From Enterobacteriaceae bacterium (GTDB lineage Bacteria; Pseudomonadota; Gammaproteobacteria; Pseudomonadales; Pseudohongiellaceae), in contig JAYPEI010000002.1 of NCBI GenBank assembly GCA_038125665.1, positions 179,311 through 243,310 on the forward strand: 64,000 nucleotides of DNA. The letters are read 5' to 3'. Below the pieces are notes generated by a model that made no database searches, was not told where the DNA came from, and worked only from the letters and a program-made list of their open reading frames with translations. Position 1 is the first letter of the stretch. Each line of letters starts with the position of its first letter. Both the position numbers and the translations under genes were made by a program. This document shows positions 10,146 through 30,009 of the stretch, piece by piece.

Positions 10146-12569
10146 ATGTCACGCACTTATGATGAACTATTTAAAGAGTTGAGCTTAATCTTAGTCCTGC
10201 AGTTGTCTTTTGCTTTTTTTATTTCTTCAAGTTTTGCTGCGACAGCAGAGGATCCCATTAATAGTGAACAGTTTACAGGGTTTTTACAAAGCTACTGTAT
10301 GGACTGCCACAACAGTGAAGATTGGGCAGGCTCTATCGCGATGGATACTTTGAACTTGAGTGATGTGAGACATGACGCTGAAATCTGGGAGAAAGCACTT
10401 GGTAGATTGCGTGGTCGATTAATGCCTCCAGTCAGTGCTGACCAGCCCGAGCAAATAGCCATTGATGCCATCATTCAGCATCTTGAAGCGAGGATTGATA
10501 CTACCAATAATGATGAATTTGTCGTCAGCCATGTGCCCATTCAACGACTGAATCGAGATGAGTTCACGGCAACTATTGAAGGGCTCATAGGTGTCAAGTT
10601 GGACCCAGAGCAAGTACTACCAACTGAAATTGAAGTCGAAGGGTTTAATAATCAAGCGGGTGCACTTATTATTTCACCCGCTTTCCTTGAGCAGTATCTG
10701 AGCGCTGTCCGAAACGCGGTCAGGCTCGCGATGGGCGAACCGGTACCAAAATTCGCTAGTACTTTTTATGCATCAGATGGGGGTACGCAACGTTCACCGG
10801 CTAATAATCAAACGATTCACCGTACTGGTATGCCTTTAGGAACTCGGGGAGGTATCAAGTTCACTCATGTATTTCCAACGGATGGCGAATATCGTTTTAA
10901 CGTGCTAGATATTGACGCGGGACTCTACCCTCGAGGTGTGGAAACTTCCGCTACACTAGTTATCTTGATTGATGACGAAGAAGTGTTGAGAAAAAAAATC
11001 GGAGGCCCAGAAGATCTTGAGTTGGCAGATCGTGATGGTCCTGAAGGTCGAGCAGCCATTATCGCTAAATTGAGTAATTTACCGGCTCTAGTGACAGCAG
11101 GTCCCCACGAAGTAGTAATTACTTATATCGAACGTTCGCGAGCTATAAGTTCAGATCTCACAGGAGGTGGTTTATTATCAAACATGCCGAGACTTCAAGA
11201 TGGCATTGAAGTGGAGGGGCCATTTCAACCATCAGGGCTGTCTATGAGTGAGAGCCGTGAAAAAATTCTCTCCTGTTTACCCAGCGAACTTGCTGAAGAA
11301 ACGGCTTGTGCAGAACAAATTATTCGAACCTTAGGAACTAAGGCGTTTCGTCGTCAAGTCACAGAGGAAGACATTGAATGGTTATTACCCTATTTTGAAG
11401 CTGGTCGTGCCGAAGCAGGTGGTTTTGACAGTGGTATTACAGAGATGGTCACAGCGATGTTGTCATCTCCCGATTTTCTTTTCAGAGCTATAAAAGGTCA
11501 GGATGCTTCTCAAGAAGCCAGCAAGCTATCTGATCTTGAGCTTGCGTCGCGGCTGTCTTTCCTTCTGTGGAGCCAAGGTCCTGATCAAGAATTAATCGAT
11601 TTGGCAGAGAAAGGCCGTCTGCATGAAGGTGTAGTCTTAGATGAACAAGTCGACAGAATGTTAGGAGATCCTCGTGCAAGTGCCTTGATAGAAAACTTTG
11701 CCTTAGCATGGTTGAATCTGGATGAGCTTGAACAGATTGAGCCGCTTGATCCGACATTTAATGATGGCATGAGGAAGAATTTTGAAACCGAAATAAGGAT
11801 GTTTCTAAGTTCTGTACTACTCGAGGATAAATCAGTAACAGAACTTTTAGATGCAAACTATACCTTTGTCAATGAGGCTTTGGCGCGTCATTACAATATC
11901 CCTGATGTTTTAGGCTCTCAATTCCGTCGAGTTGAGTTGGCTGATGAGAACCGTTGGGGATTATTGGGTAAGGGGGCTGTGTTGCTTCGTACGTCCTACG
12001 GCGATAGAACTTCTCCAGTACTCCGCGGCGCATGGGTTCTAGATCGTGTTCTAGGAACGCCCCCCACTCCGCCGCCTCCTAATGTTGAAACAGATCTTTC
12101 TATTAAAGAGGGTGAAAAGCCAACAACTGTTCGTCAGCGCCTTGAACAACATCGAGAAAATACAAGTTGTCAGTCTTGTCATGGGGCCATTGATCCACTG
12201 GGGCTGGCACTTGAGAATTTTGATGTTACTGGCAAATGGCGTTTGGTGGACGAACAAGCTAAAGAAAAAATTGACGCCTCTACTGTATTGCCGGGTGGTA
12301 AGCAAATTGAAGGGCCTGTGGCTTTGCGTGAACATCTACTGAGTCGTGCTGACCAATTTCCACAGACTATGACAAAAAGATTGATGATGTATGCTCTCAA
12401 TCGAGAAGTAGAGTTCTTTGATATGCCTGAAGTACGCCGCATTGTCGATGAGTCAAAGGAAAATGGTTGGAGCTTCGCAGCAATATTAAAGGGGGTAGTG
12501 AATAGTCCGGCCTTTAGAATGCAGGGATCTGAAGTAGAGCTCAGTCAAGTAGCTAGTAACGCTCACTAG
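10146..12569 (+). CDS. secreted multidomain heme-c protein of the planctomycete PSCyt/PSD type (DUF1587/1592/1595/1588/1585 architecture), module A
   Basis: It has a signal peptide, an N-terminal CMDCH (10296-10310) followed by GRLMPP, and a C-terminal CQSCHGAIDPLGLALENFDVTGKWR (CxxCH at 12168-12182). ATG at 10146 lies 8 nt after AGGAG. It is paralogous to 25929-28391. Confidence 0.8.
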   Translation: MSRTYDELFKELSLILVLQLSFAFFISSSFAATAEDPINSEQFTGFLQSYCMDCHNSEDWAGSIAMDTLNLSDVRHDAEIWEKALGRLRGRLMPPVSADQPEQIAIDAIIQHLEARIDTTNNDEFVVSHVPIQRLNRDEFTATIEGLIGVKLDPEQVLPTEIEVEGFNNQAGALIISPAFLEQYLSAVRNAVRLAMGEPVPKFASTFYASDGGTQRSPANNQTIHRTGMPLGTRGGIKFTHVFPTDGEYRFNVLDIDAGLYPRGVETSATLVILIDDEEVLRKKIGGPEDLELADRDGPEGRAAIIAKLSNLPALVTAGPHEVVITYIERSRAISSDLTGGGLLSNMPRLQDGIEVEGPFQPSGLSMSESREKILSCLPSELAEETACAEQIIRTLGTKAFRRQVTEEDIEWLLPYFEAGRAEAGGFDSGITEMVTAMLSSPDFLFRAIKGQDASQEASKLSDLELASRLSFLLWSQGPDQELIDLAEKGRLHEGVVLDEQVDRMLGDPRASALIENFALAWLNLDELEQIEPLDPTFNDGMRKNFETEIRMFLSSVLLEDKSVTELLDANYTFVNEALARHYNIPDVLGSQFRRVELADENRWGLLGKGAVLLRTSYGDRTSPVLRGAWVLDRVLGTPPTPPPPNVETDLSIKEGEKPTTVRQRLEQHRENTSCQSCHGAIDPLGLALENFDVTGKWRLVDEQAKEKIDASTVLPGGKQIEGPVALREHLLSRADQFPQTMTKRLMMYALNREVEFFDMPEVRRIVDESKENGWSFAAILKGVVNSPAFRMQGSEVELSQVASNAH

Positions 12570-12587
12570 AGAATAGGGGATCAAGAA

Positions 12588-13937
12588 ATGGCCAATTTTC
12601 TTACCAAAAAATATCTTTCACGCCGTACGCTGTTACGTAATGGAAGTCTAGCGCTTTCATTGCCTTTGCTTGATGCGATGATTCCAGCCTCTACTGCGTT
12701 GGCGCAGACTGCCGCCAGTCCTAAGCTGCGAGCTGGGTTCTTCTATATCCCGCATGGTGCCATAATGAATAACACACCTTTTGGTAAGGAAGTGGATGCT
12801 TGGACTTCTGAAGGTGAGGGTGAGAAATTCAAATTGGGTCATATTCTTGAACCGTTAGAGGCTTATAAGCGATATGTCACTACATTTGAAAATTTAGAAA
12901 ATAAAGCCTCTTTCGGATCAGTTCATACTATAAACCCAGCTACCTGGTTGAGTTGTGTGCGCCCGGATACTGACGCTAAAACTGCGAGTATGTCAATTAC
13001 CTTAGATCAGATTATTGCTCAGCAGCTTGGTCAGGAAACTGCGCTGCCTTCACTTGAGGTATGTTCTGAAACTACTATTCAAGTGGCTGCTTGTGGGGGA
13101 GCAGGTTGTTATTACGCATCAACGCTTTCTTACGCGGCTCCAAACTCTCCTTTACCTATGGAATTTAATCCACGCAAAATTTTTATTCAGTTATTGGGTG
13201 AAGGTGATACTGCCTTAGAGCGTGAGGCGCTCTTACAAAAAAATGCCTCAGTATTGGATATGATAGCTGATCGTACTTCTGCATTGAGTAAGCAGCTAGG
13301 TCCAGGTGACAAAGCCATTCTTTCTGATTACTTGGATAATGTTCGTGAAATAGAAAGACGAGTCGCGCTGGCGAGTGCAAGAGATCTTTCTGGTATTGAT
13401 ATTCCAGATGCGCCAGTAGGGCAGTTAGAAGACTTTGATGAACAAGTGAAATTGATGTTTGATCTTATAGCTTTAGCGTATCAGGCAGACCTCACGCGAG
13501 TGGCTTCTTATGTAATGGTCTCAGAAGGTACCAACCGTACCTATAACCATGTAGGTGTGCCTGATAGTTTCCATCCTGTATCTCATCATACGAATGACCC
13601 TGAAAGAATTCGTCGCTTAACAATCATCCAAAGATACCACATGCAGCGATTCGCCGACTTTGTCACTAAATTGGATAACACACCTGATGGAGACGGTTCT
13701 TTGTTGGATCATTCTTTGTTCCTTTATGGATCAAATATGAGTAATTCGAATCAGCACGATAACTATCCTCTTCCAGAACTTTGGATTGGTGGTGCTAATG
13801 GTCGTCATCGTGGTGGCAAAAATGTGCAATTGCCAGAGCGCACTCCACTGGCGAATCTCCATCTGACCTTCCTCGACAAGATGGGTATTGGACAGGAGAC
13901 CTTTGCCAATAGTACTGGCCTTATTGAGAAAGCCTGA
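12588..13937 (+). CDS. Tat-exported DUF1552 family protein, module A
   Basis: Twin-arginine leader LSRRTLLRNGSLALSLPLLDAM and an HxxSHH-type motif (HPVSHH). Size is 449 aa. It is paralogous to 24592-25926 and lies 18 nt after the upstream gene. Confidence 0.8.
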   Translation: MANFLTKKYLSRRTLLRNGSLALSLPLLDAMIPASTALAQTAASPKLRAGFFYIPHGAIMNNTPFGKEVDAWTSEGEGEKFKLGHILEPLEAYKRYVTTFENLENKASFGSVHTINPATWLSCVRPDTDAKTASMSITLDQIIAQQLGQETALPSLEVCSETTIQVAACGGAGCYYASTLSYAAPNSPLPMEFNPRKIFIQLLGEGDTALEREALLQKNASVLDMIADRTSALSKQLGPGDKAILSDYLDNVREIERRVALASARDLSGIDIPDAPVGQLEDFDEQVKLMFDLIALAYQADLTRVASYVMVSEGTNRTYNHVGVPDSFHPVSHHTNDPERIRRLTIIQRYHMQRFADFVTKLDNTPDGDGSLLDHSLFLYGSNMSNSNQHDNYPLPELWIGGANGRHRGGKNVQLPERTPLANLHLTFLDKMGIGQETFANSTGLIEKA

Positions 13938-13966: not shown

Positions 13967-14911
13967 ATGAATAAAAAAAATCGAAGAGAGATTCTGACTT
14001 TAGCGGGGCAAGGTGTTGGCCTGCTCAGTGTGGTCTCTTTGCTAGGAGGGCTGAGTAGCTGTTCGGGTTCAGCTAAACCTTTACCTATGCAGATACTGAA
14101 ACCAGGTATTACCTTAGTAACAGGTACCCCAGGTAATAGCTTGTTGGTCGAAACTATTGCTGGTCTAGCAATGGTGGACACAGCCGCTGCTGAGAGAGGG
14201 GCAGCTCTACTTGCTACTTTGGCTGGCAGCCCTGTCAATACACTTTTTAATACACACTATCATCGAGATCAAACAGGAGCTAATGCACTTATTGGTGAAA
14301 CAGGTGCTCAGATTTGTGCCCAAGAAATCACTAGACAATGGACCGCCTCAGATTACTACATACCGGCTGAGGAACGTTGGGAACACGCTTTACCTATAAT
14401 TTCTCAACCAACACGCACCTTTCGAGTGCGTGATGAACTAGTGGTGGGAGATCAGAATATTATTTGTGGCTACTTACTAGAGGCTCATACTCGGGGAGAC
14501 ATGTATGTCTATTTCAGTGAGGCGAATGTGCTAGCTGTGGGTGATGTTGCTTCTCCAGAACGAGATCCAGTTTTAGACTGGTTCGCGGGGGGCTGGCTAG
14601 GTGGTCGAGTAGATGCTATTGATGATTTACTTGAAATTGCAAACAATGAAACCCTGATAGTCCCGGCCTATGGCTCAGTAATGACCAGGGGGCAACTACA
14701 AACAGAACGTGACATGATGCAGTATTTATTCGATCGAACTACTGACATGGTTGACCATGGGTTCAGCGCTCAGGACATGCTGGAATCTGGTGTCATGGAT
14801 GAAGTCGTTCAGAAGTTTAATCGTCGTTTCAACGATAACTACCGTTTTCTTTACGATGTAGCTAAAAGTCATTGGGCCCACTACACAAATTTTGGTGGCA
14901 ACATTGTTTAA
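13967..14911 (+). CDS. MBL-fold metallo-hydrolase paralog with a degenerate metal motif and a Tat/lipoprotein-like leader, module A
   Basis: Leader NRREILTLAG...LSSCSGS. The motif NTHYHRDQTG replaces the canonical HxHxDH. AHTRGD and VGDV are conserved. It aligns with the MBL at 21733-22590. Confidence 0.7.
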   Translation: MNKKNRREILTLAGQGVGLLSVVSLLGGLSSCSGSAKPLPMQILKPGITLVTGTPGNSLLVETIAGLAMVDTAAAERGAALLATLAGSPVNTLFNTHYHRDQTGANALIGETGAQICAQEITRQWTASDYYIPAEERWEHALPIISQPTRTFRVRDELVVGDQNIICGYLLEAHTRGDMYVYFSEANVLAVGDVASPERDPVLDWFAGGWLGGRVDAIDDLLEIANNETLIVPAYGSVMTRGQLQTERDMMQYLFDRTTDMVDHGFSAQDMLESGVMDEVVQKFNRRFNDNYRFLYDVAKSHWAHYTNFGGNIV

Positions 14912-14958: not shown

Positions 14959-16572
14959 ATGAGTAGAATTAAATTGACAAAAATGACCAAAAATTCGCTA
15001 ACCCTGAAAGTAGGAGTATTGGCTGTAGCCGCTGCTGTCACATGGAGTACTGGTCTATTTGCTCAAGAAACTTTGATTGATCTTGCCAAAGCGGGCAAAA
15101 CTGAGATAGTTGTTGCAGCCATCACTTCGCCCGACCTAAATCTGAACCAACAAAGTGCTGATGGCTCTACTTCATTGTTGTGGGCTACTTACAACGTTGA
15201 TTATAAAATGGTGACGGCATTATTGGAGAAAGGGGCAGACCCGAATATTGCCAATAACTTTGGTGCTTTCCCGCTTAGTGAAGCTACAAAACTAGGAGAC
15301 CTGACCTTAGTTTCCTTGCTGCTGAAAGCAGGGGCAGACCCCAATCTAAGTAATACAGATAACCAAACCGCTCTTATGTTAGCAGCCAATGTGGGTTCTG
15401 TAGAAATAGCCAATTTGTTAGTTGAGGCGGGCGCTGATGTCAATGCTATAGAGGGATTTCGTCAACAGGATGCTTTAATGTGGGCTGCTGCAAACAACCA
15501 GCCAAAAATAGTTAAGTTGTTAGTAGAGGCTGGTGCGGATGTTAATCGCAGGTCCAAAGCAGACGATTGGCCAAGACAAATGACTTCCGAGCCCAGAGCC
15601 CAGTTTCGTGATACCGGAGGCCTAACATCATTACTTTATGCTACTCGCTCGGGTTGTTTGGAGTGCGTAAAAACAATTGTGGAGGCTGGCGCTGATATTG
15701 ATAAGCCAAATCCTGATGGTGTTACCCCCTTGATCAATGCACTTGATAATAAAAAATGGGATATCGCTTGGTATCTTCTAGATAAAGGAGCAAGAAATGA
15801 CATCTGGGACATGAGTGGTCGCACACCACTATATGTGGCGGTAGACCAAAACTCTTTCCGGGCTCGTGGCTTTTTCGCAGGATTTTTTAACTACGGTAGG
15901 GGGAAGGAAAGTGCACCTAACCGCTTTACAGGAATGGATTTAATAAATCGTCTTCTCAGTGAAGGAGTTGATACTGATCACCAGTTGACTCGAATGCGCC
16001 CTAACGGTTACGGGCGAGGCCGTTTTGCGGATTACATGATGAGAGGTGGCACAGGTCCTTTGATGGTTGCCACTCTATCTTATGATATTGATGCCATGAA
16101 AGCATTGCTTGCAGCAGGTGCTGAAGTTGATCTACCGAATGTCTATCAGATTACCCCTTTAATGGCTGCAGTAGGTATGAGTGGCAATTCGCGCGGACCG
16201 GCTACTATTCCTGAAGGTGATATCCAAGCTAAGGTAATTGAAGCGATCGATTTATTATTAGATGCTGGTGCAGATATAAATAAAACAGTTGCAGATTCTC
16301 GCACTTATACCGCAAAAATGGATGCCTACATAATTGGTAGAGATCAAGAAGGAAGAACTGCTCTTTTTGCAGCGGCTGAAACAGGCTGGGATAGGGTTGT
16401 TACTAGACTTCTTGAAAGAGGAGCTGATCCAACTCTACTTGATGCTGAGGGAAAGGGTATACTGGATGCAGCCATGAATCCTGTTCGAACCGGGCCAGGC
16501 GCTAGTATGGAAATTGCTGGTGCTAATCGTGAAGTGACGATATCCCTAGTTAAAGAAGCCCTTGACCAATAA
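14959..16572 (+). CDS. secreted ankyrin-repeat protein, module A
   Basis: A Sec signal peptide (…AVTWSTGLFA/QE) is followed by about 10 or more ANK repeats, for example ALMWAAANNQPKIVKLLVEAGADVN and TPLINALDNKKWDIAWYLLDKGA. It is paralogous to 28393-30009. Confidence 0.9.
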   Translation: MSRIKLTKMTKNSLTLKVGVLAVAAAVTWSTGLFAQETLIDLAKAGKTEIVVAAITSPDLNLNQQSADGSTSLLWATYNVDYKMVTALLEKGADPNIANNFGAFPLSEATKLGDLTLVSLLLKAGADPNLSNTDNQTALMLAANVGSVEIANLLVEAGADVNAIEGFRQQDALMWAAANNQPKIVKLLVEAGADVNRRSKADDWPRQMTSEPRAQFRDTGGLTSLLYATRSGCLECVKTIVEAGADIDKPNPDGVTPLINALDNKKWDIAWYLLDKGARNDIWDMSGRTPLYVAVDQNSFRARGFFAGFFNYGRGKESAPNRFTGMDLINRLLSEGVDTDHQLTRMRPNGYGRGRFADYMMRGGTGPLMVATLSYDIDAMKALLAAGAEVDLPNVYQITPLMAAVGMSGNSRGPATIPEGDIQAKVIEAIDLLLDAGADINKTVADSRTYTAKMDAYIIGRDQEGRTALFAAAETGWDRVVTRLLERGADPTLLDAEGKGILDAAMNPVRTGPGASMEIAGANREVTISLVKEALDQ

Positions 16573-16679: not shown

Positions 16680-18683
16680 TTAGAAACGATAACTTATTCC
16701 CAATCGTATACTCCTTGGAATAGTTGCTCTACTCATCCTGCAGTTTACTTCCGAGCAATCGATTTCTTCGCTATTCATCACATTATCGTAGCCAGACACG
16801 AAAGCAGGATAGAAGTAAGTAATTTCTTTACGATCGGTATCAAGCAGGTTTGCCAACTCGGCGTAGATTGTGAATTGCTCATGATGCCAAGCTGCTCGGA
16901 GATTGATATTAAGTAAACTCTGTGAACGATGTTGATTATCTGCTGATAGCGCGTATGGTCCAAGATAACGAGCTCGTAAAGCTAAATCCCAATTTTTTAG
17001 AGTAGCTGAAACGCCAATTTGTGCTGTCTCTTCTACTGCACCTTCGACATACACCCCTTCAGGGTTATCGACATAGCGAGCATTACTATGGGTATAAACG
17101 GCGTCTATACCCAACCAGTCTCTAGGTTGCCAGAAAGCTGTCAATTCTAGGCCTTGTCGCTTGGAGGCGCCTTTTGGCTCTACAGAATTGGCATCTCCAA
17201 TGAAGATTAGTTCACTACTTTGTTTCAACCACCACCAAGCAGTGGTGACTTTTAAATCACCAGTAGAAAAACGTGCTCCCCACTCGTAGCCTTTTCCTGG
17301 AGAGATGGCAGGAACTGGATCTTCAGTATTGATAACCCCTCTGGCGTCATTAGTGTGAAATCCTCGACCAAAGTTACTATATAGCTCCAGGTTTGCCGAT
17401 ACCAAATAAGCCACACTAATCTTTGGTGAGAATTGAATATCGCTATCTTTTCCGGTTGAGCTTAGCTCGTTGAGAGCATCTATCTCAAATTTTGTGGTGT
17501 CTCCCCTTAGACCAGTCATTACACGGAGCTTTTCTGTGGGCATCCATTCTGCGGACAGATAAGTCCCAACGAATAAATTTTTTGCACTATTGGCACTGAT
17601 AGGGTTTTGGAACAATCGTGCAAGGGTGTGCTCTACGCCTGTCAGACGAATATAGTCATAGCTTGCATTTCCACCAACAGAAACTTCAAGTTGGGGTGTT
17701 ATGAAAAGTAAATGATTAAGTGTAGCTCCGATCGAGTTCCTCTTATCGAACTGATTTATCTGGTAGTCGTAGGTGGGGTTGGAGTTCATCTTCCAGTCGT
17801 ATTGTTGTGCCCAAACTGTGGCATCAAATGTATCAGTGTTATGTGAGACCGTAGTCGTTAATCTCTGAGTGCTTCCCTTGGAGGTAGGGTCTAGACTGCA
17901 AAAAACATTCTCGCAGATCTGACTACGTAAGACTCGCTCAGGGATCTGCTCTGTAGGGTCCCAGCTGGCATTGTAGTAAGATATTGTTGAGGAAAACTCA
18001 CCAAGATGTGTCTGCCAAGAGCCCTTTCCCCATAAAGAAAGGTGATTGAGTTTTTCCTCTTTTTCCCAAGGACCATCATTATGTTTGTATTCTCCTACCC
18101 AAGTGTAATTAGCTAAGTCAGATTTGATAGTCTGGCCTCCTACTACGCGCTGCCAACCATAGTGGCCACCTTCAAGAGATACGAAATTTCTATCCAGTTT
18201 GTCGATAGTTTTTATTTTGGAGGCCCCAGCCATAGAAAAATCACCAAGTTCGGCGTAATACGGGCCCTTTCGGTAATCAATTCTTTCTACAGTCTCAGGA
18301 ATAAGGCCATTAACATCCAGATATCCTTGCCCATGCCCGTGGGTAGAGAGATTGACTGGTAGTCCATCAATAGTTACTGAGTAGTCTGTGCCATGGTCAA
18401 GATTGAAACCCCGTAAGAAATACTGGTTAGCTTTACCACTACCAGAGTGCTGGACAGCCACCATGCCAGGCATAGACTCCAGTAGCTCTGCCGTCTTGAA
18501 TAAAGGTTGAAGCAGTAGATCCGCCCCTTCAACAGAACCTTCGCTGGCTCCTTGGGAGTTCCCGATAAGGTCTTGGTTTCTACCAAAGACTAGGACCTCT
18601 TCAAGTTCACTTGGTTGGGCGAATGAGTACATGCTAAAAAATGAAAGAAACAGAAGAATTAATTTATGAGAATGTTCTTTCAA
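16680..18683 (-). CDS. TonB-dependent outer-membrane receptor (667 aa)
   Basis: It has a signal peptide, a plug region (ELEEVLVFGR, NQYFLRGFNLDHGTD), a long beta-barrel and a C-terminal ...ISYRF. Confidence 0.9.
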   Translation of the reverse strand: MKEHSHKLILLFLSFFSMYSFAQPSELEEVLVFGRNQDLIGNSQGASEGSVEGADLLLQPLFKTAELLESMPGMVAVQHSGSGKANQYFLRGFNLDHGTDYSVTIDGLPVNLSTHGHGQGYLDVNGLIPETVERIDYRKGPYYAELGDFSMAGASKIKTIDKLDRNFVSLEGGHYGWQRVVGGQTIKSDLANYTWVGEYKHNDGPWEKEEKLNHLSLWGKGSWQTHLGEFSSTISYYNASWDPTEQIPERVLRSQICENVFCSLDPTSKGSTQRLTTTVSHNTDTFDATVWAQQYDWKMNSNPTYDYQINQFDKRNSIGATLNHLLFITPQLEVSVGGNASYDYIRLTGVEHTLARLFQNPISANSAKNLFVGTYLSAEWMPTEKLRVMTGLRGDTTKFEIDALNELSSTGKDSDIQFSPKISVAYLVSANLELYSNFGRGFHTNDARGVINTEDPVPAISPGKGYEWGARFSTGDLKVTTAWWWLKQSSELIFIGDANSVEPKGASKRQGLELTAFWQPRDWLGIDAVYTHSNARYVDNPEGVYVEGAVEETAQIGVSATLKNWDLALRARYLGPYALSADNQHRSQSLLNINLRAAWHHEQFTIYAELANLLDTDRKEITYFYPAFVSGYDNVMNSEEIDCSEVNCRMSRATIPRSIRLGISYRF

Positions 18684-21588: not shown

Positions 21589-21732
21589 GGAAAATTTTAA
21601 GGTCCCTTAACTAAAGTCAGTTCCACAAATTTACTCTAGTGTTTTGAATTTGAAGGGAGGTAAACTCTAGCTAGTAGATTGGGTAAAGTTATATTCGTAC
21701 TTGATCAGTTGATCCAACCAAGAGAGAAGACT

Positions 21733-22614: not shown

Positions 22615-23619
22615 ATGTTAATGAAATTCTCTTTGTCCAAAATCGCCTTATCCGCTTTCTTGCTTAGTTGTACAGCTGGCACTGCAGCTCATCACAGCCA
22701 GGCTGTTTTTGATACGAGTCGTGTTATTACCTTCGAGGGAACCGTTAAGCGATTCGATTGGCGCAACCCACACATGTACTTGCAGGTAGAGACACAGAAA
22801 GAAAATGGTGAAACCTATGTCCAGCAGATCGAGGGGCTAGCGATAACGCAAGCTCTGGTTGATGGACTTAAAAAAGAGGACCTTCTGCCTGGGATGCAAG
22901 TGATAGTAAGAGCTAACCCAAACAGAAGAGATAGATACAATACTATCAGAGGATTAAACATCACCACCGCAGACGGGGTTGTGCACCCGTTCTACGAAAG
23001 TAACCCAGTACAGCCTGTTCTAGTTCCCGCAGACACAATGAGCGGCCACTGGGCACCCTCTCTGGGGGAAACAGGCAAGGCAATGGCAGCCTCTCGTTCT
23101 TGGCCCCTAAGTAAGCCAGGTCCTCGCCCCTATGAAGAGGCAGGCTGCATGGTCGAACCGGTCCCCTTCTTAACCGTGATAAACGAGTTACGGGTAATCG
23201 AGCTGAGAGAAAATGAAGTGTTAATGAGACATGATAATTCAGGAGATATCGTTGATCGGATAATTCCTCTGGGACTAACAACTCATCCCGACAATATTGT
23301 GCCATCCCTATTTGGTCACTCGATTGGCCGTTGGGAAGGTAACACTTTGGTCATAGACACCATAGGATACGCCGCCAACGATGCTGGCCTGTTCTCTGGT
23401 ATCCCTGGTGGAGTAAGGAAACAGACTATAGAACGTTTAACGCTAACTGAAGATCGTAAACAGCTAAGATATGAAGTAACGATGACGGATCCTGACTTTC
23501 TTACAGCCCCTGTTGAAATTAGTATGTTATGGGATCACCGTCCAGACCTACCACTGTCCAGTGACCCTTGTGAGCAGGAGATTTCTGACAGGTTCCTCAG
23601 TGACGGTTTTTTGGAGTAG
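22615..23619 (+). CDS. secreted protein: DUF6152-like N-terminal domain fused to a ~200-aa C-terminal domain of unknown function
   Basis: A signal peptide is followed by AHHSQAVFDTSRVITFEGTVKRFDWRNPHMYL, the pattern I associate with small DUF6152 proteins found next to TBDRs. The C-terminal part contains GHSIGRWEGNTLVIDT...LRYEVTMTDPDFLTAP. Confidence 0.55.
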   Translation: MLMKFSLSKIALSAFLLSCTAGTAAHHSQAVFDTSRVITFEGTVKRFDWRNPHMYLQVETQKENGETYVQQIEGLAITQALVDGLKKEDLLPGMQVIVRANPNRRDRYNTIRGLNITTADGVVHPFYESNPVQPVLVPADTMSGHWAPSLGETGKAMAASRSWPLSKPGPRPYEEAGCMVEPVPFLTVINELRVIELRENEVLMRHDNSGDIVDRIIPLGLTTHPDNIVPSLFGHSIGRWEGNTLVIDTIGYAANDAGLFSGIPGGVRKQTIERLTLTEDRKQLRYEVTMTDPDFLTAPVEISMLWDHRPDLPLSSDPCEQEISDRFLSDGFLE

Positions 23620-23642: not shown

Positions 23643-24533
23643 ATGGTGATGAATCATTTTTCTCTGATAATGAAAATAATCTCAACTTTGGTAATTCTGC
23701 CTATTCTTCCCGTAACTGTAATGGCAACAACTGTTGTTGAGACAATTTCATACTCACATGAATCTCTGCCTGGACATACAATATATCAACCAAGGAATTT
23801 GGTTAGTCAATACCCAGTGGTCCTCTGGGGAAATGGGAGTTGCGTAAACAGCTCATACAGCTATGAATCATTTCTAAGAGAGGTAGCTGCACAGGGTTTA
23901 GTCGTAATCGCAATCGGTCCCTATCGCGACTCGCCTTATCCAAGGCGACAGAGATCAGAGGACCCTGCAGATTGGCCACCCTTTGAGACGAACTATCGGC
24001 AACACTTTGAAGCACTTGAGTGGGCTGAGGATGTGAAGCGGGGAGGAATAGATGATCTGGGGTCTCATCTTGATCTGACTAGGATAGCAGTCATGGGGCA
24101 CTCGTGTGGAGGTTTGCAGGCAGTAAAGGCATCCAGTGACCCTCGTGTTACAACAACAGTTGTGCTCAACAGTGGGCTCTTCCCAGATGACGACCAGTAC
24201 ATGATAAGACATGAAGCTAAGCGGGAAGACTTATTAAAACTCCATGCCCCCATTGCCTACTTTATTGGTGGAGAAACAGACATCGCTTACCTTAATGCTG
24301 AACAAGACTGGCTTTCACTTCAATATCAAGATCAAATTGTTATTAACGCGAATATGGAGGTCGGACACGGGGCAACCTATGACCAGCCTGGTGGTTATCC
24401 TTTTGCCGAGGGCCCGATTGAGTGGTTAAAGTTTCAGCTGCTTGGTAACGAGGAGTCAGGCTCAAAATTTACTGGTGAAAATTGTGGTTTTTGCTCTTCA
24501 AGCGAGTGGATAATAAAAAAGAAAGGGATATGA
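23643..24533 (+). CDS. secreted alpha/beta hydrolase (dienelactone hydrolase / cutinase / chlorophyllase-like fold)
   Basis: It has a signal peptide, VVLWGNGSC...GLVVIAIG, and the nucleophile elbow VMGHSCGG (GxSxG). Confidence 0.65.
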   Translation: MVMNHFSLIMKIISTLVILPILPVTVMATTVVETISYSHESLPGHTIYQPRNLVSQYPVVLWGNGSCVNSSYSYESFLREVAAQGLVVIAIGPYRDSPYPRRQRSEDPADWPPFETNYRQHFEALEWAEDVKRGGIDDLGSHLDLTRIAVMGHSCGGLQAVKASSDPRVTTTVVLNSGLFPDDDQYMIRHEAKREDLLKLHAPIAYFIGGETDIAYLNAEQDWLSLQYQDQIVINANMEVGHGATYDQPGGYPFAEGPIEWLKFQLLGNEESGSKFTGENCGFCSSSEWIIKKKGI

Positions 24534-24591: not shown

Positions 24592-25926
24592 CTAGAGCAA
24601 GAATCTGCCTGTTGATATCCCGATCTCATTCATCTCGACACCCATAACGTCGGCTATTCCAAGAAGTAGGTTGGAAGTTGGTTCATCTTCGCTAGCTTTC
24701 AAATGACGGTTACCCTCAACACGTCCCCCCGCACTGCCAACTAACATGGCCGGTACGTTATGGCGATCATGTACCAACCCGTTACTCATGCCTGCACCAT
24801 AGTAGAGTAGAGAGTTGTCTAGCAAGCTACCTTCACCATCAGGAGTGTTGCTCATTTTCTCAACAAATTCTGAGAATTTATGCATCTGATAGGTAGTGAT
24901 CTTGGAATATTTAGCGATACTCTCTTCAGTGTTTTTATGATGAGTCACATTGTGGTGTGGCTCATTGACACCAATGTGAGCATAGCTGCGACCAGTGGCT
25001 TCATGTCCAGTCATGAAAGTGAACACACGAGTCATGTCTCCCTGGAATGCAAGGTGAATTAAATCGTAGGTTATTGACATGTGAGTATCAAAATCCTCAG
25101 GTATGCCGACTGGGCCATCTGTAGCTCCAGATATGACCTCTGAGCGCGATGACATGCGTTCTATTTGGCTTTCCACTCGACGTACATTAGTGAGATATTC
25201 ATCTAAAAGTGTTCTATCATTAGAACCAAGCATTTTATCTAACCGCTTGGTCTCGTCCAGAATAGAGTCCAACATGCTTTGTTTGGTGTCTAGTCGACGA
25301 AGACGCTGTTCCGCGGTGCCAGGATCGCCGAACATACGCTCAAAGGTGACTTGAGGGCTGATTACAACAGGAAGTGGGCTCTCATCATCGTACCAAGCCA
25401 GAGTATTAAAGAAGATACAAGGGTAGTTGTCGCACGCTCCCGCTGCAGTTCCCATATCCTCAACACCGAGCTCGAGTGATCGCATGGGTGTATCCCCAGC
25501 AATAACGTCCGCGATGTACTGATCAAGAGATTTCGCCGAGCGCAACTGGTTAAAGTTCCCATTCTCACTCAAAGGGCCACGGCCGTTAAGAAAAGCTGAA
25601 CTTGCTCCCATATGGATACCGCCCATATCCTGACGTCCCTCAGGTGATTTCATTCGACTTATTGTCGTGACATAGTTCCGGAACCTCTCCATTGGCTTCA
25701 TCACTTTATTGAAGGTGAAGTCTTTCCCAACTTCTTCTGGGTGCCAGTCTCCAGGATATATTCCGTTAGGTATGTAGACAGTACCAAATCTTAGTTTTCT
25801 TGCCGCTGCAGTTTTTGATTGAGCGGTGGCAGCGGGGACCATAGCATCGAGCAGTGGAAGTGCAAGTGCAGTACCAGCACCCCTTAGAAGAGTGCGGCGA
25901 TTGAGATGTTTTTTAGTGATGTACAT
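24592..25926 (-). CDS. Tat-exported DUF1552 family protein, module B
   Basis: Leader LNRRTLLRGAGTALALPLLDAM and motif HNVTHH. Size is 444 aa. Its start lies 2 nt after the stop of the upstream gene. Confidence 0.8.
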   Translation of the reverse strand: MYITKKHLNRRTLLRGAGTALALPLLDAMVPAATAQSKTAAARKLRFGTVYIPNGIYPGDWHPEEVGKDFTFNKVMKPMERFRNYVTTISRMKSPEGRQDMGGIHMGASSAFLNGRGPLSENGNFNQLRSAKSLDQYIADVIAGDTPMRSLELGVEDMGTAAGACDNYPCIFFNTLAWYDDESPLPVVISPQVTFERMFGDPGTAEQRLRRLDTKQSMLDSILDETKRLDKMLGSNDRTLLDEYLTNVRRVESQIERMSSRSEVISGATDGPVGIPEDFDTHMSITYDLIHLAFQGDMTRVFTFMTGHEATGRSYAHIGVNEPHHNVTHHKNTEESIAKYSKITTYQMHKFSEFVEKMSNTPDGEGSLLDNSLLYYGAGMSNGLVHDRHNVPAMLVGSAGGRVEGNRHLKASEDEPTSNLLLGIADVMGVEMNEIGISTGRFLL

Positions 25927-25928: not shown

Positions 25929-28391
25929 CTAATCTCCCAAGTTGGTGTTTGAAGCCAGGCTTGAAACGTTTGATTTACTGCTATTTGTACGCATAAGGAA
26001 AGGATAGCTTTCAATGATCCCTAATATGATAGATTGTAAGGAGTAGTTTTCCTTTGAAGCTCCTCTTACAATCCTTCTTACCATAGGTTTATCAAGGGGA
26101 TCAAGCCCCCTGCCCAGTGCATAGATTAGAAGCTTCTCTGTGACCGTGCTTGCAAAAAGCTCTGGGTCGGCAAGGAGGGCCTCTCGTAGCTGTATTGGTC
26201 CATGGATATCTCGACCGTCTAGCAGAGTGCCTGATGAATCTATGGGTAGGCCTTCGCGATTAACCGTTCTCCAAGTTCCATCCACATCAAAGTTTTCCAT
26301 GGCGAAGCCAACAGGGTCAATGACATCATGGCAGTGCGCACAGGTGGGGTCGGCTCGGTGGCGTTCAAGTTGCTCTCTAACAGTAGAGGCACGTCCTACT
26401 GGAGCGCTAGCCTCTAATGCAGGAACATTTGGTGGCGCGGGTGGGGGAGGGTTATTCCAAAGCTCCGATAAGATGAATTTGCCTCTCATAATGGGTGAGG
26501 TTCTGCTGGTTGCCGAAGTCTGAGTGCTGATACTACCGTGCCCTAAAAGACCGAAGCGATTAGGGTCTGTTACATCAACTTTACGAACTCTAGATCCGAG
26601 CACTCCCGAAATGCCATAGTGTTTGGCGAGTCGCTCGTCCACGAAAGTATATTCAGCGGAGAGTAATTCATGGACAGGTCGATTTTCTCTTAGCACGTAC
26701 GCAAAGAGGGACTCTGTTTCTTTCCTCATACTTTGACGTAAGTTGTCATCAAAGTCTGGATACATTGATAAGTCTGGACGAGAAAGTTGGTCCATGTTTC
26801 GTAGATGCAGCCACTGGCCTACAAAGTTTTCGACAAACGAATCAGCCTTTGGATTGTTAAGCATACGAACAACTTGAGATTTTCTCTCTGTTGAGTCCAA
26901 CAATGAATCTGTACTTGCTGAGTCAAGCAACTCATCGTCAGGGATGGATGACCAGAGGAAGTAGGAGAGACGAGACGCTAGTTCGTAGGCATTAATGGCT
27001 TGGTCTGATCCTGGTGCAGTATCAGTTGCATCATTTTCGACCCTAAAAAGGAAGAAGGGACTAACAATTGTTCTGGCTACTCCTGAGCGAATGCCTTCGT
27101 AGAAATTACCGCCACTGTCTCGTTCACTCTGGTAGAAGGCCATTGGGGCTGCAATGTCAGAATCATTAACTTCACGACGGAAAGCTCGTCGTGCTAGGTT
27201 GGTCAATATTTGACGTGCACAGTTTTCTTCTTCGGAAGCTAAAGCTGGGTCACAAGTGAGTATCTTTTCGCGTGTAGACATCTGGCTGATACCAGAAACA
27301 TTGTACGGACCCTCAATCATCACTTTTTCAAGTCTTGGATTGCCAGACGTATTGTGAATTTCTAAGGTATCACGGGCAACGGGTTGCCAAGAATTTTGTT
27401 CAGCATTAGGACGCTCACGCCAAGTCCAGATCACTTCATGCGGACCAGCCGTGACTTTTAGCTTGGGTGAAGTAAGTTTCTGATTGACCACGGGGATGAC
27501 ATCATTAAATTCCTTCACCGAAATTTCATGTTGTTCCTTGCCCCCTATCTTGCTGGAATAAACAAGATTGCCATCGATATATATGAGGAAGTCGTGAGGG
27601 CGATCATGGCCCTCAATACCAAAATAACCTTCCGCAACTCCCTGTAAAGGACGAGCAGAAAAAGTATATTCGCCATCTGCTGGGAAATAATGAGTTTTTG
27701 CAATGCCACCTCTAGTCCCAATAGGCATGCCAGCTAGATGTTTGTTTTGTGAAGTATCGAAAGGAATATTATAAGTGATGGCATTAACGGCAGCCTCTGT
27801 ATTACCCATAGCCAGATCTGCAATTCGCATACCTACCGTAAGATAGCGATCCAGTAACATGGGTGAAGTTCGTAATAGATCACCAATATTGTCGAAGCCA
27901 TAATCTCCTGAGTCTGCCGGTAGCGTCTCGGTTAGGTCAAGATCAATGCCCAGTAAATCACGTATTGAGTTTGTGTACTCGGCTCGGTTTAGTCTGTGAA
28001 TGCTGGTAGAACCTGCATAGGGTTTATGAGCTGCTGACTCATCTAGGGCTGCCTCCAAAACAGCCACGAAGTTTTCTCTCTCCTCTCGACTTGGCTGAGA
28101 ATTACGTTTGGGTGGCATAGAATAAATACGCATCTTCCGGAGGATCTCTTCAAAAATACCTGGATCCTTTGTTAAGTCTTTTGGAGAGTAATCCTCTAGG
28201 GATAAGTTGGCTCTGAATTCAACTATGTTGTGACATTCAGTACAGTACTCATCGACTAATGGCCAAGCCTCTTCTAAGGCAGTTACTGCTTGTTGATTCT
28301 GCTGTGCTTGGGTCTCTAGGACAAAAAACGCGCTAACGCAAGAAAGTTGTGCGAAGAATAGAGCAAACTTCTTTCTTCTAAGATTGGGCAT
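25929..28391 (-). CDS. secreted multidomain heme-c protein of the PSCyt/PSD type (DUF1592-type architecture), module B
   Basis: It has a signal peptide, an N-terminal CTECH followed by MPP, and a C-terminal CAHCHDVIDPVGFAMENFDVDGTWR. Size is 820 aa. Its start lies 1 nt after the ankyrin gene stop. Confidence 0.8.
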   Translation of the reverse strand: MPNLRRKKFALFFAQLSCVSAFFVLETQAQQNQQAVTALEEAWPLVDEYCTECHNIVEFRANLSLEDYSPKDLTKDPGIFEEILRKMRIYSMPPKRNSQPSREERENFVAVLEAALDESAAHKPYAGSTSIHRLNRAEYTNSIRDLLGIDLDLTETLPADSGDYGFDNIGDLLRTSPMLLDRYLTVGMRIADLAMGNTEAAVNAITYNIPFDTSQNKHLAGMPIGTRGGIAKTHYFPADGEYTFSARPLQGVAEGYFGIEGHDRPHDFLIYIDGNLVYSSKIGGKEQHEISVKEFNDVIPVVNQKLTSPKLKVTAGPHEVIWTWRERPNAEQNSWQPVARDTLEIHNTSGNPRLEKVMIEGPYNVSGISQMSTREKILTCDPALASEEENCARQILTNLARRAFRREVNDSDIAAPMAFYQSERDSGGNFYEGIRSGVARTIVSPFFLFRVENDATDTAPGSDQAINAYELASRLSYFLWSSIPDDELLDSASTDSLLDSTERKSQVVRMLNNPKADSFVENFVGQWLHLRNMDQLSRPDLSMYPDFDDNLRQSMRKETESLFAYVLRENRPVHELLSAEYTFVDERLAKHYGISGVLGSRVRKVDVTDPNRFGLLGHGSISTQTSATSRTSPIMRGKFILSELWNNPPPPAPPNVPALEASAPVGRASTVREQLERHRADPTCAHCHDVIDPVGFAMENFDVDGTWRTVNREGLPIDSSGTLLDGRDIHGPIQLREALLADPELFASTVTEKLLIYALGRGLDPLDKPMVRRIVRGASKENYSLQSIILGIIESYPFLMRTNSSKSNVSSLASNTNLGD

Positions 28392-28392
28392 C

Positions 28393-30009
28393 CTACTGAC
28401 CTCTTGCTAGCTGCTGTGAGTGTTCATCTTGTCTAGCTTGGAGCTGGGTATCTTGTAATTCTTCAAGGAGAGCAACAATTTCTTCAGGCCAGGCGGGCGG
28501 TTCCTCAAAATAAAATCCGGGCGTACCGCTAGGCCTAGGCATTTTTCTCACTTGATCGAGTGCGGTTTCTCCTTTGTTATTGGTTTGATCTAGCTGTGCA
28601 CCATGTGCCACCAATGCTTTAATGATCGTAGGATTAAGTTCTTTGACTGCGTAGTGCAAGGCAGTATCACCATCTGGGCCAGCAACTGTGACATCGGCAC
28701 CATGGCGCAGTAATAAATCAACAGCCATTTCAGGACTTCGAACACCCTCCTCCCTGTATGGAGGAGGACCATACCTTAGATCATTTGGGCCACCATCTAC
28801 ACCTACTCCATTGCCACCTCTGATCGCTGCCATCAATGCAGTTCTACTGGCGATGGTTTCTTCACCGTCAATGCCGACGCTGCGTGTTTGTGACTCTGGT
28901 TTCCAGTTGACATCTGCACCGTGTTGTAACATAAGCTCCATACCAGCAATGTCGGCGGCTTCTGCGGCACGATAAAAACCACTGACATTCACTTTAACGT
29001 CGCAGCACATTGAGGCGTTATGCATTTGACCAATGAATGGTTTATTTGGGTCTGCTCCTTTTTCTAACAATCTTCTGGTTAACTCCAGGGCGCTCAATTT
29101 ATTTTCAAAATCATGGCGATAAACTGTGCCATCTTGTGCGCGCCAATCAGTAGTTGCATCACGCATTACTGTTGCGTAATACAGTGAGCCATCATTTGCA
29201 TCAGCACCAAGTTCAAGCATATAGGCTGCGACATCCAGACGATCATTGACTACAGCCAGCATTAAGGGCGTGACTGAATCACCGTTGATGGGGCTAAGGG
29301 CGGCTCCATGTTCGACTAAAAGATCGATCATCTTCAAGTCACCATTGCGAACTGCCCAGTGTAAGGCCGCAAAACCGCCGCTTGTAAAGTCGGCATTTTT
29401 ACGTTTGGTCAACTCATTGACTCTAGTTTGTAAGTTTGGATCTGCATCATGATCTAGAAGAAATTTCGCGACATCATGATGGCCAGCTGCAACTGCCCAC
29501 ATCAAAGCGCTCTGTTGATCAAAAGCTTCTGTTTGATTGACTGGAGCACCATTTTCCAACAGTAGTTTCACTGTGTCTAAGGAACCTGATCGAGCACCTG
29601 CAAGGAGAACAGGCTCCGAAGTGAGATCATGTGATAAAACTTGAGCTCCTGCTTTGAGTAATAATGACAGTATTTCAGTTTCTCCGTTACGTGCAGCCTG
29701 TAACAAAGGGCTGATATCAAGGTTATTTGCAATGTTGGGATCGGCTCCAGCCGCTAGTAAAAGAGACGTCATCTCTTCCGAGCTGTTATAAACAGCCCAA
29801 AGAAGTGCTGAACTGCCATCGGGTGAGGTGCTGTTCACAGATGCCTTTGCGGAGTTGTTTTTTTGTAGAGCTTCTAGCTGAGTTTTAAGTGTATCGGCAT
29901 CGTTTTGACGAGCGCTATTAATCAAACTGTTATTAGCGAATACAACACTACTTATCAGTGAAGAGCACCCAAAAAATAAAGCGAATAGGATTGAACAAAA
30001 ACGCGACAT
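28393..30009 (-). CDS. secreted ankyrin-repeat protein, module B
   Basis: Signal peptide MSRFCSILFALFFGCSSLISSVVFA/NN, followed by ANK repeats such as ALMWAVAAGHHDVAKFLLDHDADPN and TPLMLAVVNDRLDVAAYMLELGADAN. Confidence 0.9.
   Translation of the reverse strand: MSRFCSILFALFFGCSSLISSVVFANNSLINSARQNDADTLKTQLEALQKNNSAKASVNSTSPDGSSALLWAVYNSSEEMTSLLLAAGADPNIANNLDISPLLQAARNGETEILSLLLKAGAQVLSHDLTSEPVLLAGARSGSLDTVKLLLENGAPVNQTEAFDQQSALMWAVAAGHHDVAKFLLDHDADPNLQTRVNELTKRKNADFTSGGFAALHWAVRNGDLKMIDLLVEHGAALSPINGDSVTPLMLAVVNDRLDVAAYMLELGADANDGSLYYATVMRDATTDWRAQDGTVYRHDFENKLSALELTRRLLEKGADPNKPFIGQMHNASMCCDVKVNVSGFYRAAEAADIAGMELMLQHGADVNWKPESQTRSVGIDGEETIASRTALMAAIRGGNGVGVDGGPNDLRYGPPPYREEGVRSPEMAVDLLLRHGADVTVAGPDGDTALHYAVKELNPTIIKALVAHGAQLDQTNNKGETALDQVRKMPRPSGTPGFYFEEPPAWPEEIVALLEELQDTQLQARQDEHSQQLARGQ

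Follow-up and report, generated by a model that had tools for sequence, protein, structure and literature searches.

A 64,000-nt stretch of contig JAYPEI010000002.1 (positions 179,311 to 243,310 of the forward strand, assembly GCA_038125665.1), hereafter called the window, carries between positions 10146 and 30009 twelve genes which a preliminary description had portrayed as two inverted, paralogous modules (A and B) placed around a core of TonB-dependent receptors (TBDRs). Our analysis instead places the modules, without the receptors, in the foreground: each is a copy of a periplasmic cassette found in many other genomes, in which a multidomain c-type heme protein of the PSCyt3/PSD type (here PSD) is encoded next to a DUF1552 protein and, in most loci, a secreted ankyrin protein (ANK) and a metallo-beta-lactamase-fold protein (MBL). 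We estimate the probability that this conserved cassette, in both its A-type and B-type form, encodes a heme-wired metalloenzyme complex at roughly 45%. The cassette genes of the window are the following.

10146 to 12569, + strand: PSD_A, predicted two-heme PSCyt3/PSD protein, predicted to be Sec-exported, 807 aa (810 aa from the GTG at 10137)
12588 to 13937, + strand: DUF1552_A, Pfam HXXSHH (E 6e-75), predicted to be exported by the twin-arginine (Tat) pathway, probable alkaline-phosphatase-superfamily fold, proposed catalytic subunit
13967 to 14911, + strand: MBL_A, Pfam Lactamase_B, variant motif HYHRDQ, RR-containing leader with a possible lipobox
14959 to 16572, + strand: ANK_A, Pfam Ank families, secreted, 537 aa, signal-like N-terminus
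24592 to 25926, - strand: DUF1552_B, Pfam HXXSHH (E 9e-79), predicted to be Tat-exported, 444 aa, probably alkaline-phosphatase-like
25929 to 28391, - strand: PSD_B, predicted two-heme PSCyt3/PSD protein, 820 aa, motifs CTECH and CAHCH
28393 to 30009, - strand: ANK_B, Pfam ankyrin, secreted, 538 aa, first gene of module B

The positions given earlier for all twelve open reading frames (ORFs) agree with our ORF map, and every domain named in the preliminary description was recovered by Pfam. The export signals claimed for all products are visible by eye in 12/12 N-termini, the heme, Tat-leader and HPVSHH/HNVTHH motifs are present as described, and no regulator, TonB/ExbBD or inner-membrane transporter is encoded inside 10146-30009, as had been stated. 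For PSD_A, a 100%-identical database entry of 807 aa favors the ATG start at 10146 over the GTG at 10137. The genes within each module are closely spaced, with intergenic gaps of 18–47 nt in module A and 1–2 nt in module B; DUF1552 starts 18 nt (module A) and 2 nt (module B) after the PSD stop codon, and a single nucleotide separates ANK_B from the start of PSD_B. Gaps of 1–47 nt inside the modules suggest co-translation.

Conservation of the cassette was assessed in a survey anchored on DUF1552, covering 79 loci from different GTDB species, onto which the window proteins were mapped by tblastn. The loci represent Gammaproteobacteria (including Steroidobacteraceae), Alphaproteobacteria, Acidobacteriota (including Bryobacteraceae and Vicinamibacterales) and one Verrucomicrobiota genome, and the counts refer to the 48 loci from other species with at least 5 kb on both sides of DUF1552. 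A clustering of the ORFs at these loci was discarded, as antisense ORFs of high-GC genomes had contaminated its component 2, and the counts are therefore based on tblastn. PSD was found upstream of DUF1552 in 46 of the 48 loci (44 within 3.2 kb; a spacer of about 1 kb is present in L033 and L038), ANK downstream of it in 44 loci, and MBL within 5 kb in 41 loci, with all three present together in at least 37. DUF6152 was located within 10 kb of DUF1552 in 9/48 loci. The preliminary description had proposed such a neighborhood survey with the receptor included; the co-occurrence of DUF1552, PSD, ANK and MBL was confirmed by it, whereas a TonB-dependent receptor was found within 10 kb in only 3/48 loci. 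The neighborhood counts thus substantiate the heme protein, DUF1552 and the ankyrin protein, commonly with MBL, as a real conserved functional unit.

The position of the MBL gene is variable: in the closest orthologues of A-type it separates DUF1552 from ANK, in a group with 45–53% identity it is located upstream of PSD, and in others it comes after ANK. Three cassette architectures were distinguished. A reverse survey anchored on ANK_A identified the cassette in 6 of the 10 loci with enough flanking DNA. The ANK_A homologues of L095, L096, L097 and L100 have no PSD, DUF1552 or MBL gene within 6 kb, and the neighbors in L095 and L097 include genes for an MCP, an IS1595 transposase, an MFS transporter and DUF480. 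Of four more distant DUF1552 representatives, three are on short contigs and a single one was informative, L109, a locus of Planctomycetes-Verrucomicrobia-Chlamydiae (PVC) type (32% identity), which has a sulfatase-PSD-DUF1552 arrangement near a DUF1501 gene, with ANK and MBL both absent.

Both PSD proteins contain PSD3, PSD5, PSD4, PSCyt3 and PSD2 domains, all scoring above the Pfam gathering cut-offs, and show weak matches to PSCyt1/Cytochrome_CBB3. In PSD_A, the order is a class-I cytochrome c domain, PSD3, a beta-sandwich, PSD5, PSD4, PSCyt3 (with the second CxxCH) and PSD2. The heme motifs are CMDCH and CQSCH in PSD_A, and CTECH and CAHCH in PSD_B. C51xxCH, M93-P-P, C675xxCH and two more cysteines were found to be invariant in 31 PSD homologues, the M-P-P motif being typical of His/Met class-I cytochrome c. 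The invariance of both CxxCH motifs and of the Met ligand argues for functional hemes, and the protein is predicted to carry two c-type hemes. The N-terminal domain of the PSD protein could be weakly aligned to the cytochrome c subunit of bc1, and in the AlphaFold2 (AF2) model (pLDDT 74) the beta-sandwich, at about residues 204–360, gave weak Foldseek matches to carbohydrate-binding module (CBM) folds of the CBM6, CBM35 and CBM51 kind. Foldseek found no match at E<0.01 in the PDB for the full model and no counterpart at E<0.01 for the helical region 370–800, and PDB sequence searches returned nothing useful. The di-heme cytochrome c peroxidase family CCP_MauG likewise gave no Pfam match at E<=0.01 and no PDB sequence or fold match for PSD. 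The PSD protein of L109 (6078-7991), encoded directly downstream of a classical sulfatase gene, is 637 aa long compared to 807–820 aa in the window, and we suspect that the extra ~170 aa of the window proteins are the CBM-like beta-sandwich.

The DUF1552 family is large, comprising 13,191 clusters at 50% identity (E<=1e-3) and 6,787 at E<=1e-10. The AF2 model of DUF1552_A, built with 35 sequences, had a mean pLDDT of 64 and a pTM of 0.73, and all 21 matches at E<=1e-3 in a Foldseek comparison with the PDB were members of the alkaline phosphatase superfamily (probability ~1.0, E 1e-5 to 1e-3, TM ~0.4, sequence identity 8–14%). These include steroid sulfatase (8eg3), LtaS (4uoo), carrageenan sulfatases, sulfamidase, MCR-1 and iPGM. 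Single-protein and profile/HMM searches of PDB sequences identified no relative of DUF1552. With moderate confidence, the protein can be said to have the core fold of the alkaline phosphatase superfamily, and it carries in addition a long helical hairpin insert at residues 209–263.

Residue conservation in DUF1552 was evaluated over 80 members with 31–59% identity. P26, G57, D140, Q141, D224, D241, H329, H333 and G401 are invariant in the alignment, and R12 and R13 (of the Tat motif), H113, W182, D301, T303, R304, H334 and H390 are at least 90% conserved; the motif HPVSHH of DUF1552_A reads HNVTHH in DUF1552_B. DUF1552 gave no C/S-x-P-x-R formylglycine motif, no match to Pfam Sulfatase and no match to PDB sulfatase sequences. 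Beta-strand 1 is followed by a conserved P-[HN]-G in which the metal-binding Asp usual for the superfamily is absent, a position read from secondary structure only, and near the expected position of the nucleophile, placed in the same manner, H113 is the sole conserved residue, with no conserved Ser, Thr or Cys. The Tat leaders, SRRTLLR in DUF1552_A and NRRTLLR in DUF1552_B, are each followed by LPLLDAM, and both proteins are predicted to be exported by the Tat pathway. The segment right after the twin arginines, 'ALPLLDAM.PA' (window 12588-12680 and 25926-25840), is conserved to nearly the same degree as the catalytic-looking residues, and the invariance of P26 across the 80 members is unusual for a cleaved signal peptide. 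This suggests that the post-RR segment may be retained or specifically recognized.

MBL_A and MBL_C, the latter encoded between the modules, appear to belong to the general Lactamase_B fold, with no narrower family supported: no NCBIfam family scored above its cut-off for either protein, and the nearest were the class B core domain and SoxH-related hydrolases. HxHx[DE][QH] is the typical pattern of the cassette MBL proteins, most of which carry HxHx[DE]Q instead of HxHxDH, and the slot of MBL_A between DUF1552 and ANK is occupied likewise in orthologous cassettes. MBL-fold enzymes include phosphodiesterases and alkylsulfatases. The ANK proteins show AnkB-like traits in their signal-peptide-like N-terminus, their ankyrin repeats and the operon shared with a heme protein. 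Few bacterial ankyrin proteins are secreted and serve a housekeeping function in the periplasm, which makes the conserved ankyrin of the cassette of interest in its own right.

In the mechanism that we propose, DUF1552 would be folded, and probably metal-loaded, in the cytoplasm before its export by the Tat pathway, and would be the catalytic subunit, with a His/Asp-rich site formed by H113, D140, H329, H333, H334 and H390. The PSD protein would be exported by the Sec pathway and receive its two c-type hemes, its CBM-like beta-sandwich would possibly bind the substrate, and through the two-heme relay the active site would be connected with an aerobic respiratory chain by way of its periplasmic cytochrome c pool. 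The secreted ankyrin may function as a dedicated periplasmic scaffold or assembly factor, for which AnkB and KatB offer a precedent, and the MBL-fold protein may assist as a hydrolase of the product or leaving group. For related modules, the Tat signal has been taken to imply a cofactor-bearing enzyme and the cytochromes to imply electron transfer (PMC3542564); PSCyt genes are enriched in genomes from oxic layers (PMC5615132), and AnkB is described as needed for full KatB catalase activity in the passage of PMC12754779 that cites Howell 2000. Circumstantial support for a redox role comes from periplasmic dehydrogenases near the cassette: pyrroloquinoline quinone (PQQ) quinohemoprotein-type ORFs are present in 20/77 loci, and a GSDH-type PQQ dehydrogenase is encoded directly downstream of ANK in five metagenomic loci (L090-L092, L098 and L104) and near module B in the window. 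A cytochrome domain of Cbp2D, which has a PSD-type domain, also reduces lytic polysaccharide monooxygenases in vitro (PMC8981238). A bolder version, in which the cassette represents a new periplasmic enzyme class with a nucleophile-less alkaline-phosphatase scaffold, a His-rich metal centre wired to hemes, oxidative chemistry and an obligatory ankyrin subunit, seems doubtful to us; if it is true, the alkaline phosphatase superfamily would gain its first redox enzyme, and thousands of 'planctomycete-specific cytochrome' gene pairs would become open to biochemistry for the first time.

Several points weigh against the heme-wired complex. Complex formation, heme electron transfer, catalysis by DUF1552 and the roles of ANK and MBL are all steps that we infer, and redox enzymes are not known to us from the alkaline phosphatase superfamily. 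The model of DUF1552 is moderately confident at its mean pLDDT of 64 and leaves residues 162–226 unmodelled, and the proposed active site presumes that the conserved His and Asp residues cluster. The count of 20/77 loci with PQQ quinohemoprotein-type ORFs has no genome-wide background against which to judge enrichment. Homologues of ANK_A with 57–61% identity stand alone, in unrelated contexts, in 4 of the 10 ANK-anchored loci, so the ankyrin is a frequent but not obligatory cis partner. No adjacent MBL was found in the B-type cassettes examined (L084-L087 and L106) or in L109, which is also without ANK, so that a model of four proteins fails for the family as a whole; judging from L109 alone, ANK and MBL look like the feature of a sub-clade and not a property of all members.

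The counterparts in the two modules are paralogous along their full length, as had been claimed, and far beyond chance: PSD_A and PSD_B share 36% identity (E 1e-161), DUF1552_A and DUF1552_B 38% (E 5e-106), ANK_A and ANK_B 30% (E 1e-49), and MBL_A and MBL_C 29% (E 1e-28). PSD and DUF1552 are thus at the low end of the earlier estimate of 35–50 percent identity, which was optimistic for ANK and MBL. One inverted match survives between the modules at the DNA level (36 nt, 78%, window 10863-10898 / 27660-27695). It encodes a conserved peptide, THVFPTDGEYRF / THYFPADGEYTF, in the beta-sandwich region of PSD, of which H241, F243, P244, D246, G247, E248 and Y249 are invariant in PSD homologues. With just these 36 nt left, a recent DNA duplication is ruled out, in agreement with the preliminary description, which had seen ancient paralogy and not a recent repeat. 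Its wording of an 'old duplication' stands with regard to the age of the paralogy, but the modules are better seen as two old cassette subfamilies placed side by side.

Other genomes contain, at unrelated loci, orthologues of each module with ~80% identity. The gene order is PSD-DUF1552-MBL-ANK in module A but ANK-PSD-DUF1552 in module B. An A-type DUF1552 with 81% identity is found elsewhere within the same four-gene order, in a quite different neighborhood (dihydroxyacetone kinase and phosphotransferase system genes upstream, SnoaL/DUF8021 downstream) from which the receptor is absent, and the A order recurs in unrelated neighborhoods in L001-L004, L090-L094 and L104. DUF1552_B has orthologues with 77–83% identity in other genomes; the B-type orthologues with 77–80% identity keep the order ANK-PSD-DUF1552, which was seen in L084-L087 and L106, in unrelated neighborhoods and with no adjacent MBL. 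Paired cassettes are also clustered in L007, L019, L055, L067, L090 and L092. By these sequence comparisons, A and B are two old subfamilies of one cassette, inherited separately, and their inverted juxtaposition in this genome is probably secondary, because the ~80%-identical orthologues sit at unrelated loci and the gene orders differ. The modules are most likely independent paralogous operons that are adjacent by chance, rather than the halves of a single machine.

The centre of the locus, between the modules, is occupied by the following genes.

16680 to 18683, - strand: TonB-dependent receptor 1 (TBDR1), Pfam Plug and barrel, a neighbor and not a conserved component
19010 to 21520, + strand: TonB-dependent receptor 2 (TBDR2), Pfam Plug and barrel, a neighbor and not a conserved component
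21679 to 22590, + strand: MBL_C, Pfam Lactamase_B, canonical HIHGDH motif
22615 to 23619, + strand: DUF6152 fusion protein, Pfam DUF6152 at residues 16–105, C-terminal domain unnamed
23643 to 24533, + strand: alpha/beta-hydrolase-like secreted protein, weak Pfam matches, membership of the system doubtful

A comparison of TBDR1 with TBDR2 revealed no paralogy between them, and a relationship between the two receptors was rejected. Based on strand changes and on hairpins seen by eye, the region appears to comprise about five transcription units; one hairpin with a T-run follows TBDR2 (GCGCTGGTAG...CTACCAGCGTTTTTTTT, ~21556-21588), and a second is located between the converging hydrolase and DUF1552_B genes. 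An automatic promoter/terminator consensus scan returned background-level hits and was uninformative. No Fur or Pho boxes were present in the intergenic regions scanned, with near-matches only inside coding sequence, and an Rfam scan of the whole window gave no riboswitch, just a tRNA. The alpha/beta-hydrolase assignment is weak, PAF-AH_p_II alone passing the Pfam cut-off, and a homologue is encoded near one other cassette only (L078).

Genes for DUF6152 and/or for the C-terminal domain of the fusion (C-domain) adjoin the cassette in about one fifth of the loci. They are found directly beside the cassette MBL in L032 and L047 and directly upstream of PSD in L020, while in L086/L087 a TBDR-DUF6152-C-domain operon abuts a B-type cassette; MBL genes adjoin DUF6152 or C-domain genes upstream of the cassettes in L020, L032, L042 and L047. 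The C-terminal part of the fusion matches separate ORFs in L086. This half (residues ~155–334) represents an unnamed secreted family with a signature like 'G-K-P-D-x-S-G-x-W' and no Pfam match, members of which are separate ORFs in L086 (15041-16572), L020 (6451-7410) and L042 (5239-6012), often duplicated and beside DUF6152, MBL or TBDR genes. In the DUF6152 proteins examined (window, L020, L042, L050, L060, L084 and L086), the signal peptide ends in '...A|HHS' and a 'WxNPH' motif is shared. The mature N-terminus would be His-His-Ser and looks like the N-terminal His metal site of histidine-brace copper proteins; in the window copy, the cleavage site is ambiguous owing to a possible lipobox (LLSC) ahead of HHS. 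PDB searches found no relative of DUF6152, and a full-text literature search gave no functional study of it. MBL_C and the DUF6152 fusion are plausibly a facultative satellite of module B, and any connection of the receptors with the cassette would run through this satellite.

The main rival to a complex with redox function, which we nevertheless hold to be unlikely, is that DUF1552 acts as a conventional non-redox ester hydrolase or transferase in phosphate or sulfate ester scavenging or in envelope modification, with the PSD protein as a binding or structural partner whose hemes are vestigial or sensory. The fold matches to sulfatases, LtaS, the phosphoethanolamine transferase MCR-1 and iPGM are in its favor, together with the CBM-like beta-sandwich of the PSD protein, the phosphodiesterases and alkylsulfatases known among MBL-fold proteins, and the classical sulfatase gene directly upstream of PSD-DUF1552 in L109. 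Sulfatase genes also often adjoin PSCyt genes (PMC5615132). This proposal is, however, at odds with DUF1552 having neither a C/S-x-P-x-R motif nor a conserved Ser/Thr/Cys nucleophile, but H113 only, and with the P-[HN]-G, without Asp, after beta-strand 1; the invariant CxxCH motifs and Met ligand argue for functional hemes, and the intergenic scan gave no upstream Pho box. It is also improbable that the cassette serves in periplasmic oxidative-stress or peroxide defence, with PSD resembling a di-heme peroxidase and ANK an AnkB-like helper, as PSD has no Pfam match to CCP_MauG or another peroxidase family and the alkaline-phosphatase-like subunit is left unexplained. Consistent with such a role are the AnkB-KatB precedent, KatG at window 1-2106, and the B-type cassette of L084, which lies directly downstream, on the same strand, of an ECF sigma / zf-HC2-cupin anti-sigma cluster. 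The cluster (L084 1-7477) is of stress type and also includes SnoaL, SDR, amine oxidase, DUF1365 and CMAS (cyclopropane-fatty-acid synthase) genes, which we take to resemble photo-oxidative-stress (RpoE-ChrR-type) regulons, but this context was not seen at other loci. While a DUF1552 gene was listed among the stress-regulated genes of R. baltica (PMC2754498), the many paralogues per PVC genome (PMC5615132, PMC3542564) fit substrate diversity better.

Two further alternatives involve the genes at the centre of the locus. The PSD cytochrome could be the electron donor to a separate copper protein, for which DUF6152 with its mature His-His-Ser is the candidate, DUF1552 being otherwise employed; the cytochrome domain of Cbp2D, a protein containing DUF1587 (PSD3), reduces lytic polysaccharide monooxygenases (LPMOs), the '...A|HHS' signal-peptide end and 'WxNPH' are common to the DUF6152 proteins, and DUF6152 or its companion domain is found beside cassettes in ~20% of loci. 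With DUF6152 absent from the other ~80% of cassette loci, DUF1552 and not DUF6152 as the invariant partner, metal binding by DUF6152 a candidate property of a protein that has no structure or PDB relative, and the possible LLSC lipobox of the window copy leaving its cleavage site ambiguous, we judge this very improbable. The view of the preliminary description, by which the whole 20-kb region would be one system where a TBDR-imported substrate is processed by both modules and by the MBL, DUF6152 and alpha/beta-hydrolase proteins, has in our estimation a low probability. All products look exported and the genes are physically together in the window, TBDR and DUF6152 genes are located upstream of the cassette in L019 and, as an operon with the C-domain gene, next to the B-type cassette in L086/L087, and DUF6152 is near the cassette in 9/48 loci. 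One machine around a receptor core is, on the other hand, contradicted by the receptor count of 3/48, and no receptor is near the orthologous cassettes of L001-L004, L084 and L090-L104. In addition, about five transcription units are apparent in the region, TBDR2 being followed by a hairpin and T-run; the receptors show no relationship to each other, and neither a common regulator nor a Fur box, Pho box or riboswitch was detected.

On either side of the region 10146-30009, Pfam assigned an SSF symporter gene, at 8292-9872, and a gene for a PepSY_TM protein, at 30316-31218. A mobile or foreign island was rejected as an explanation, the GC content being even (0.41–0.49) and rpoD and dnaG being nearby. 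Curated NCBIfam families are lacking for PSD, DUF1552, PepSY, the hydrolase and the fusion protein with DUF6152. Beyond the modules and the KatG gene, the window holds further dehydrogenase and cytochrome genes. A GSDH-type PQQ dehydrogenase is encoded near module B (31748-33043), and L013 and L059 are further loci where PQQ-type dehydrogenase genes recur with the cassette. A molybdopterin dehydrogenase pair is present in two copies (3330-5992 and 33085-36494), each combining a small 2Fe-2S subunit with a large subunit, MoCoBD, of isoquinoline/aldehyde oxidoreductase type; after the second copy comes a gene for a small cytochrome c (36105-36494). Tandem paralogues of ~890 aa each, at 36792-39476 and 39697-42342, combine a G8 domain with a CEMIP-type beta-helix; such domains are best known from animal proteins that bind or depolymerize hyaluronan.

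The PSCyt/PSD-type domains were reportedly named by Studholme et al. in 2004, and the genes have been without an assigned function since then despite being abundant in aerobic aquatic and soil heterotrophs. The four-gene cassette of Proteobacteria and Acidobacteriota provides concrete partners for pull-downs and co-expression studies, and the non-PVC lineages that bear it include cultivable genera. The fold of DUF1552 narrows down the possible chemistry and points to specific residues to mutate. Experiments on the cassette as a putative heme-wired complex need no TBDR-imported substrate, since the receptors are not conserved partners.

The core of the cassette is not new. He et al. (2017; PMC5615132, Text S1) reported that PSCyt3 genes (their group III) usually adjoin DUF1552 genes and stated the function as not known. 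The claim of the preliminary description that no function has been assigned agrees with our full-text searches on DUF1552, DUF1585/1587/1588/1592/1595, PSCyt and DUF6152, which gave no functional study. As the pairing has been published without a function and these searches gave no functional study, the window modules are members of a known but uncharacterised module. Group III modules (PSCyt3 and PSD4, often with PSD2/3/5, and DUF1552) and the window copies have the same Pfam architecture, with DUF1552 immediately downstream, CxxCH motifs and a Tat leader. In contrast to the group III modules of PVC bacteria, the window copies sit in a gammaproteobacterial-type genome and add a secreted ankyrin and an MBL, both absent from the PVC-type L109, relative to which the PSD protein is also ~170 aa longer. 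Ankyrin or MBL partners are not mentioned in the searched texts of PMC5615132 or PMC3542564, the word 'ankyrin' being absent from the latter (Kamneva et al.), and an earlier description of ANK and MBL as conserved partners does not appear to exist. Kamneva et al. (2012; PMC3542564) described modules of DUF1501 with PSCyt1/PSCyt2/PSD1, and inferred electron transport together with a Tat-exported cofactor enzyme. Like the window cassette, these place a Tat-exported protein beside a multidomain c-type cytochrome, with many paralogues per PVC genome, but they contain DUF1501 in place of DUF1552 and PSCyt2/PSD1 in place of PSCyt3/PSD2-5, and have no ankyrin or MBL partner; the window holds no DUF1501 gene.

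The individual proteins can also be compared to characterized systems. DUF1552 resembles type I sulfatases and the alkaline phosphatase superfamily in its predicted fold (Foldseek), and differs from type I sulfatases by having no formylglycine motif or conserved Ser/Thr nucleophile and by its His-rich conserved set, the helical hairpin insert at 209–263 and its obligatory pairing with a cytochrome. The window ankyrins share with katB-ankB of Pseudomonas aeruginosa and Myxococcus a signal-peptide ankyrin in an operon with a heme enzyme, which in katB-ankB needs it for full activity; the partner enzyme is unrelated, and the likeness is one of features, as ankyrin repeats match regardless of function. 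At 537 and 538 aa, the window ankyrins are presumably about three times the size of AnkB. MBL_A and MBL_C recall the SoxH-related 'quinoprotein relay' zinc metallohydrolases (TIGR04558/TIGR04559), which are periplasmic MBL-fold proteins encoded beside periplasmic redox enzymes and cytochromes and which are among the best NCBIfam matches of MBL_A and the best of MBL_C; at 36–76 bits compared to cut-offs of 280–300 bits the window proteins are not members, and in MBL_A the HxHxDH motif is replaced by HxHxDQ. Published biochemistry exists for a single PSD-domain protein, Cbp2D from Cellvibrio japonicus, the X183 cytochrome domain of which is an electron donor to LPMOs in vitro (PMC8981238). Cbp2D comprises CBM2, YceI-like, FN3, DUF1587 and two cytochrome c domains and is, like the PSD protein, an extracytoplasmic multidomain c-type heme protein with a PSD-type domain and a carbohydrate-binding module; its architecture differs, with PSD3 (DUF1587) as the sole domain shown to be shared and neither a DUF1552 partner nor an ankyrin. 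Compared to these systems, the present analysis adds ANK and MBL as conserved partners, a distinction of three cassette architectures, the occurrence in phyla outside the PVC group and a probable fold for DUF1552 with atypical residues.

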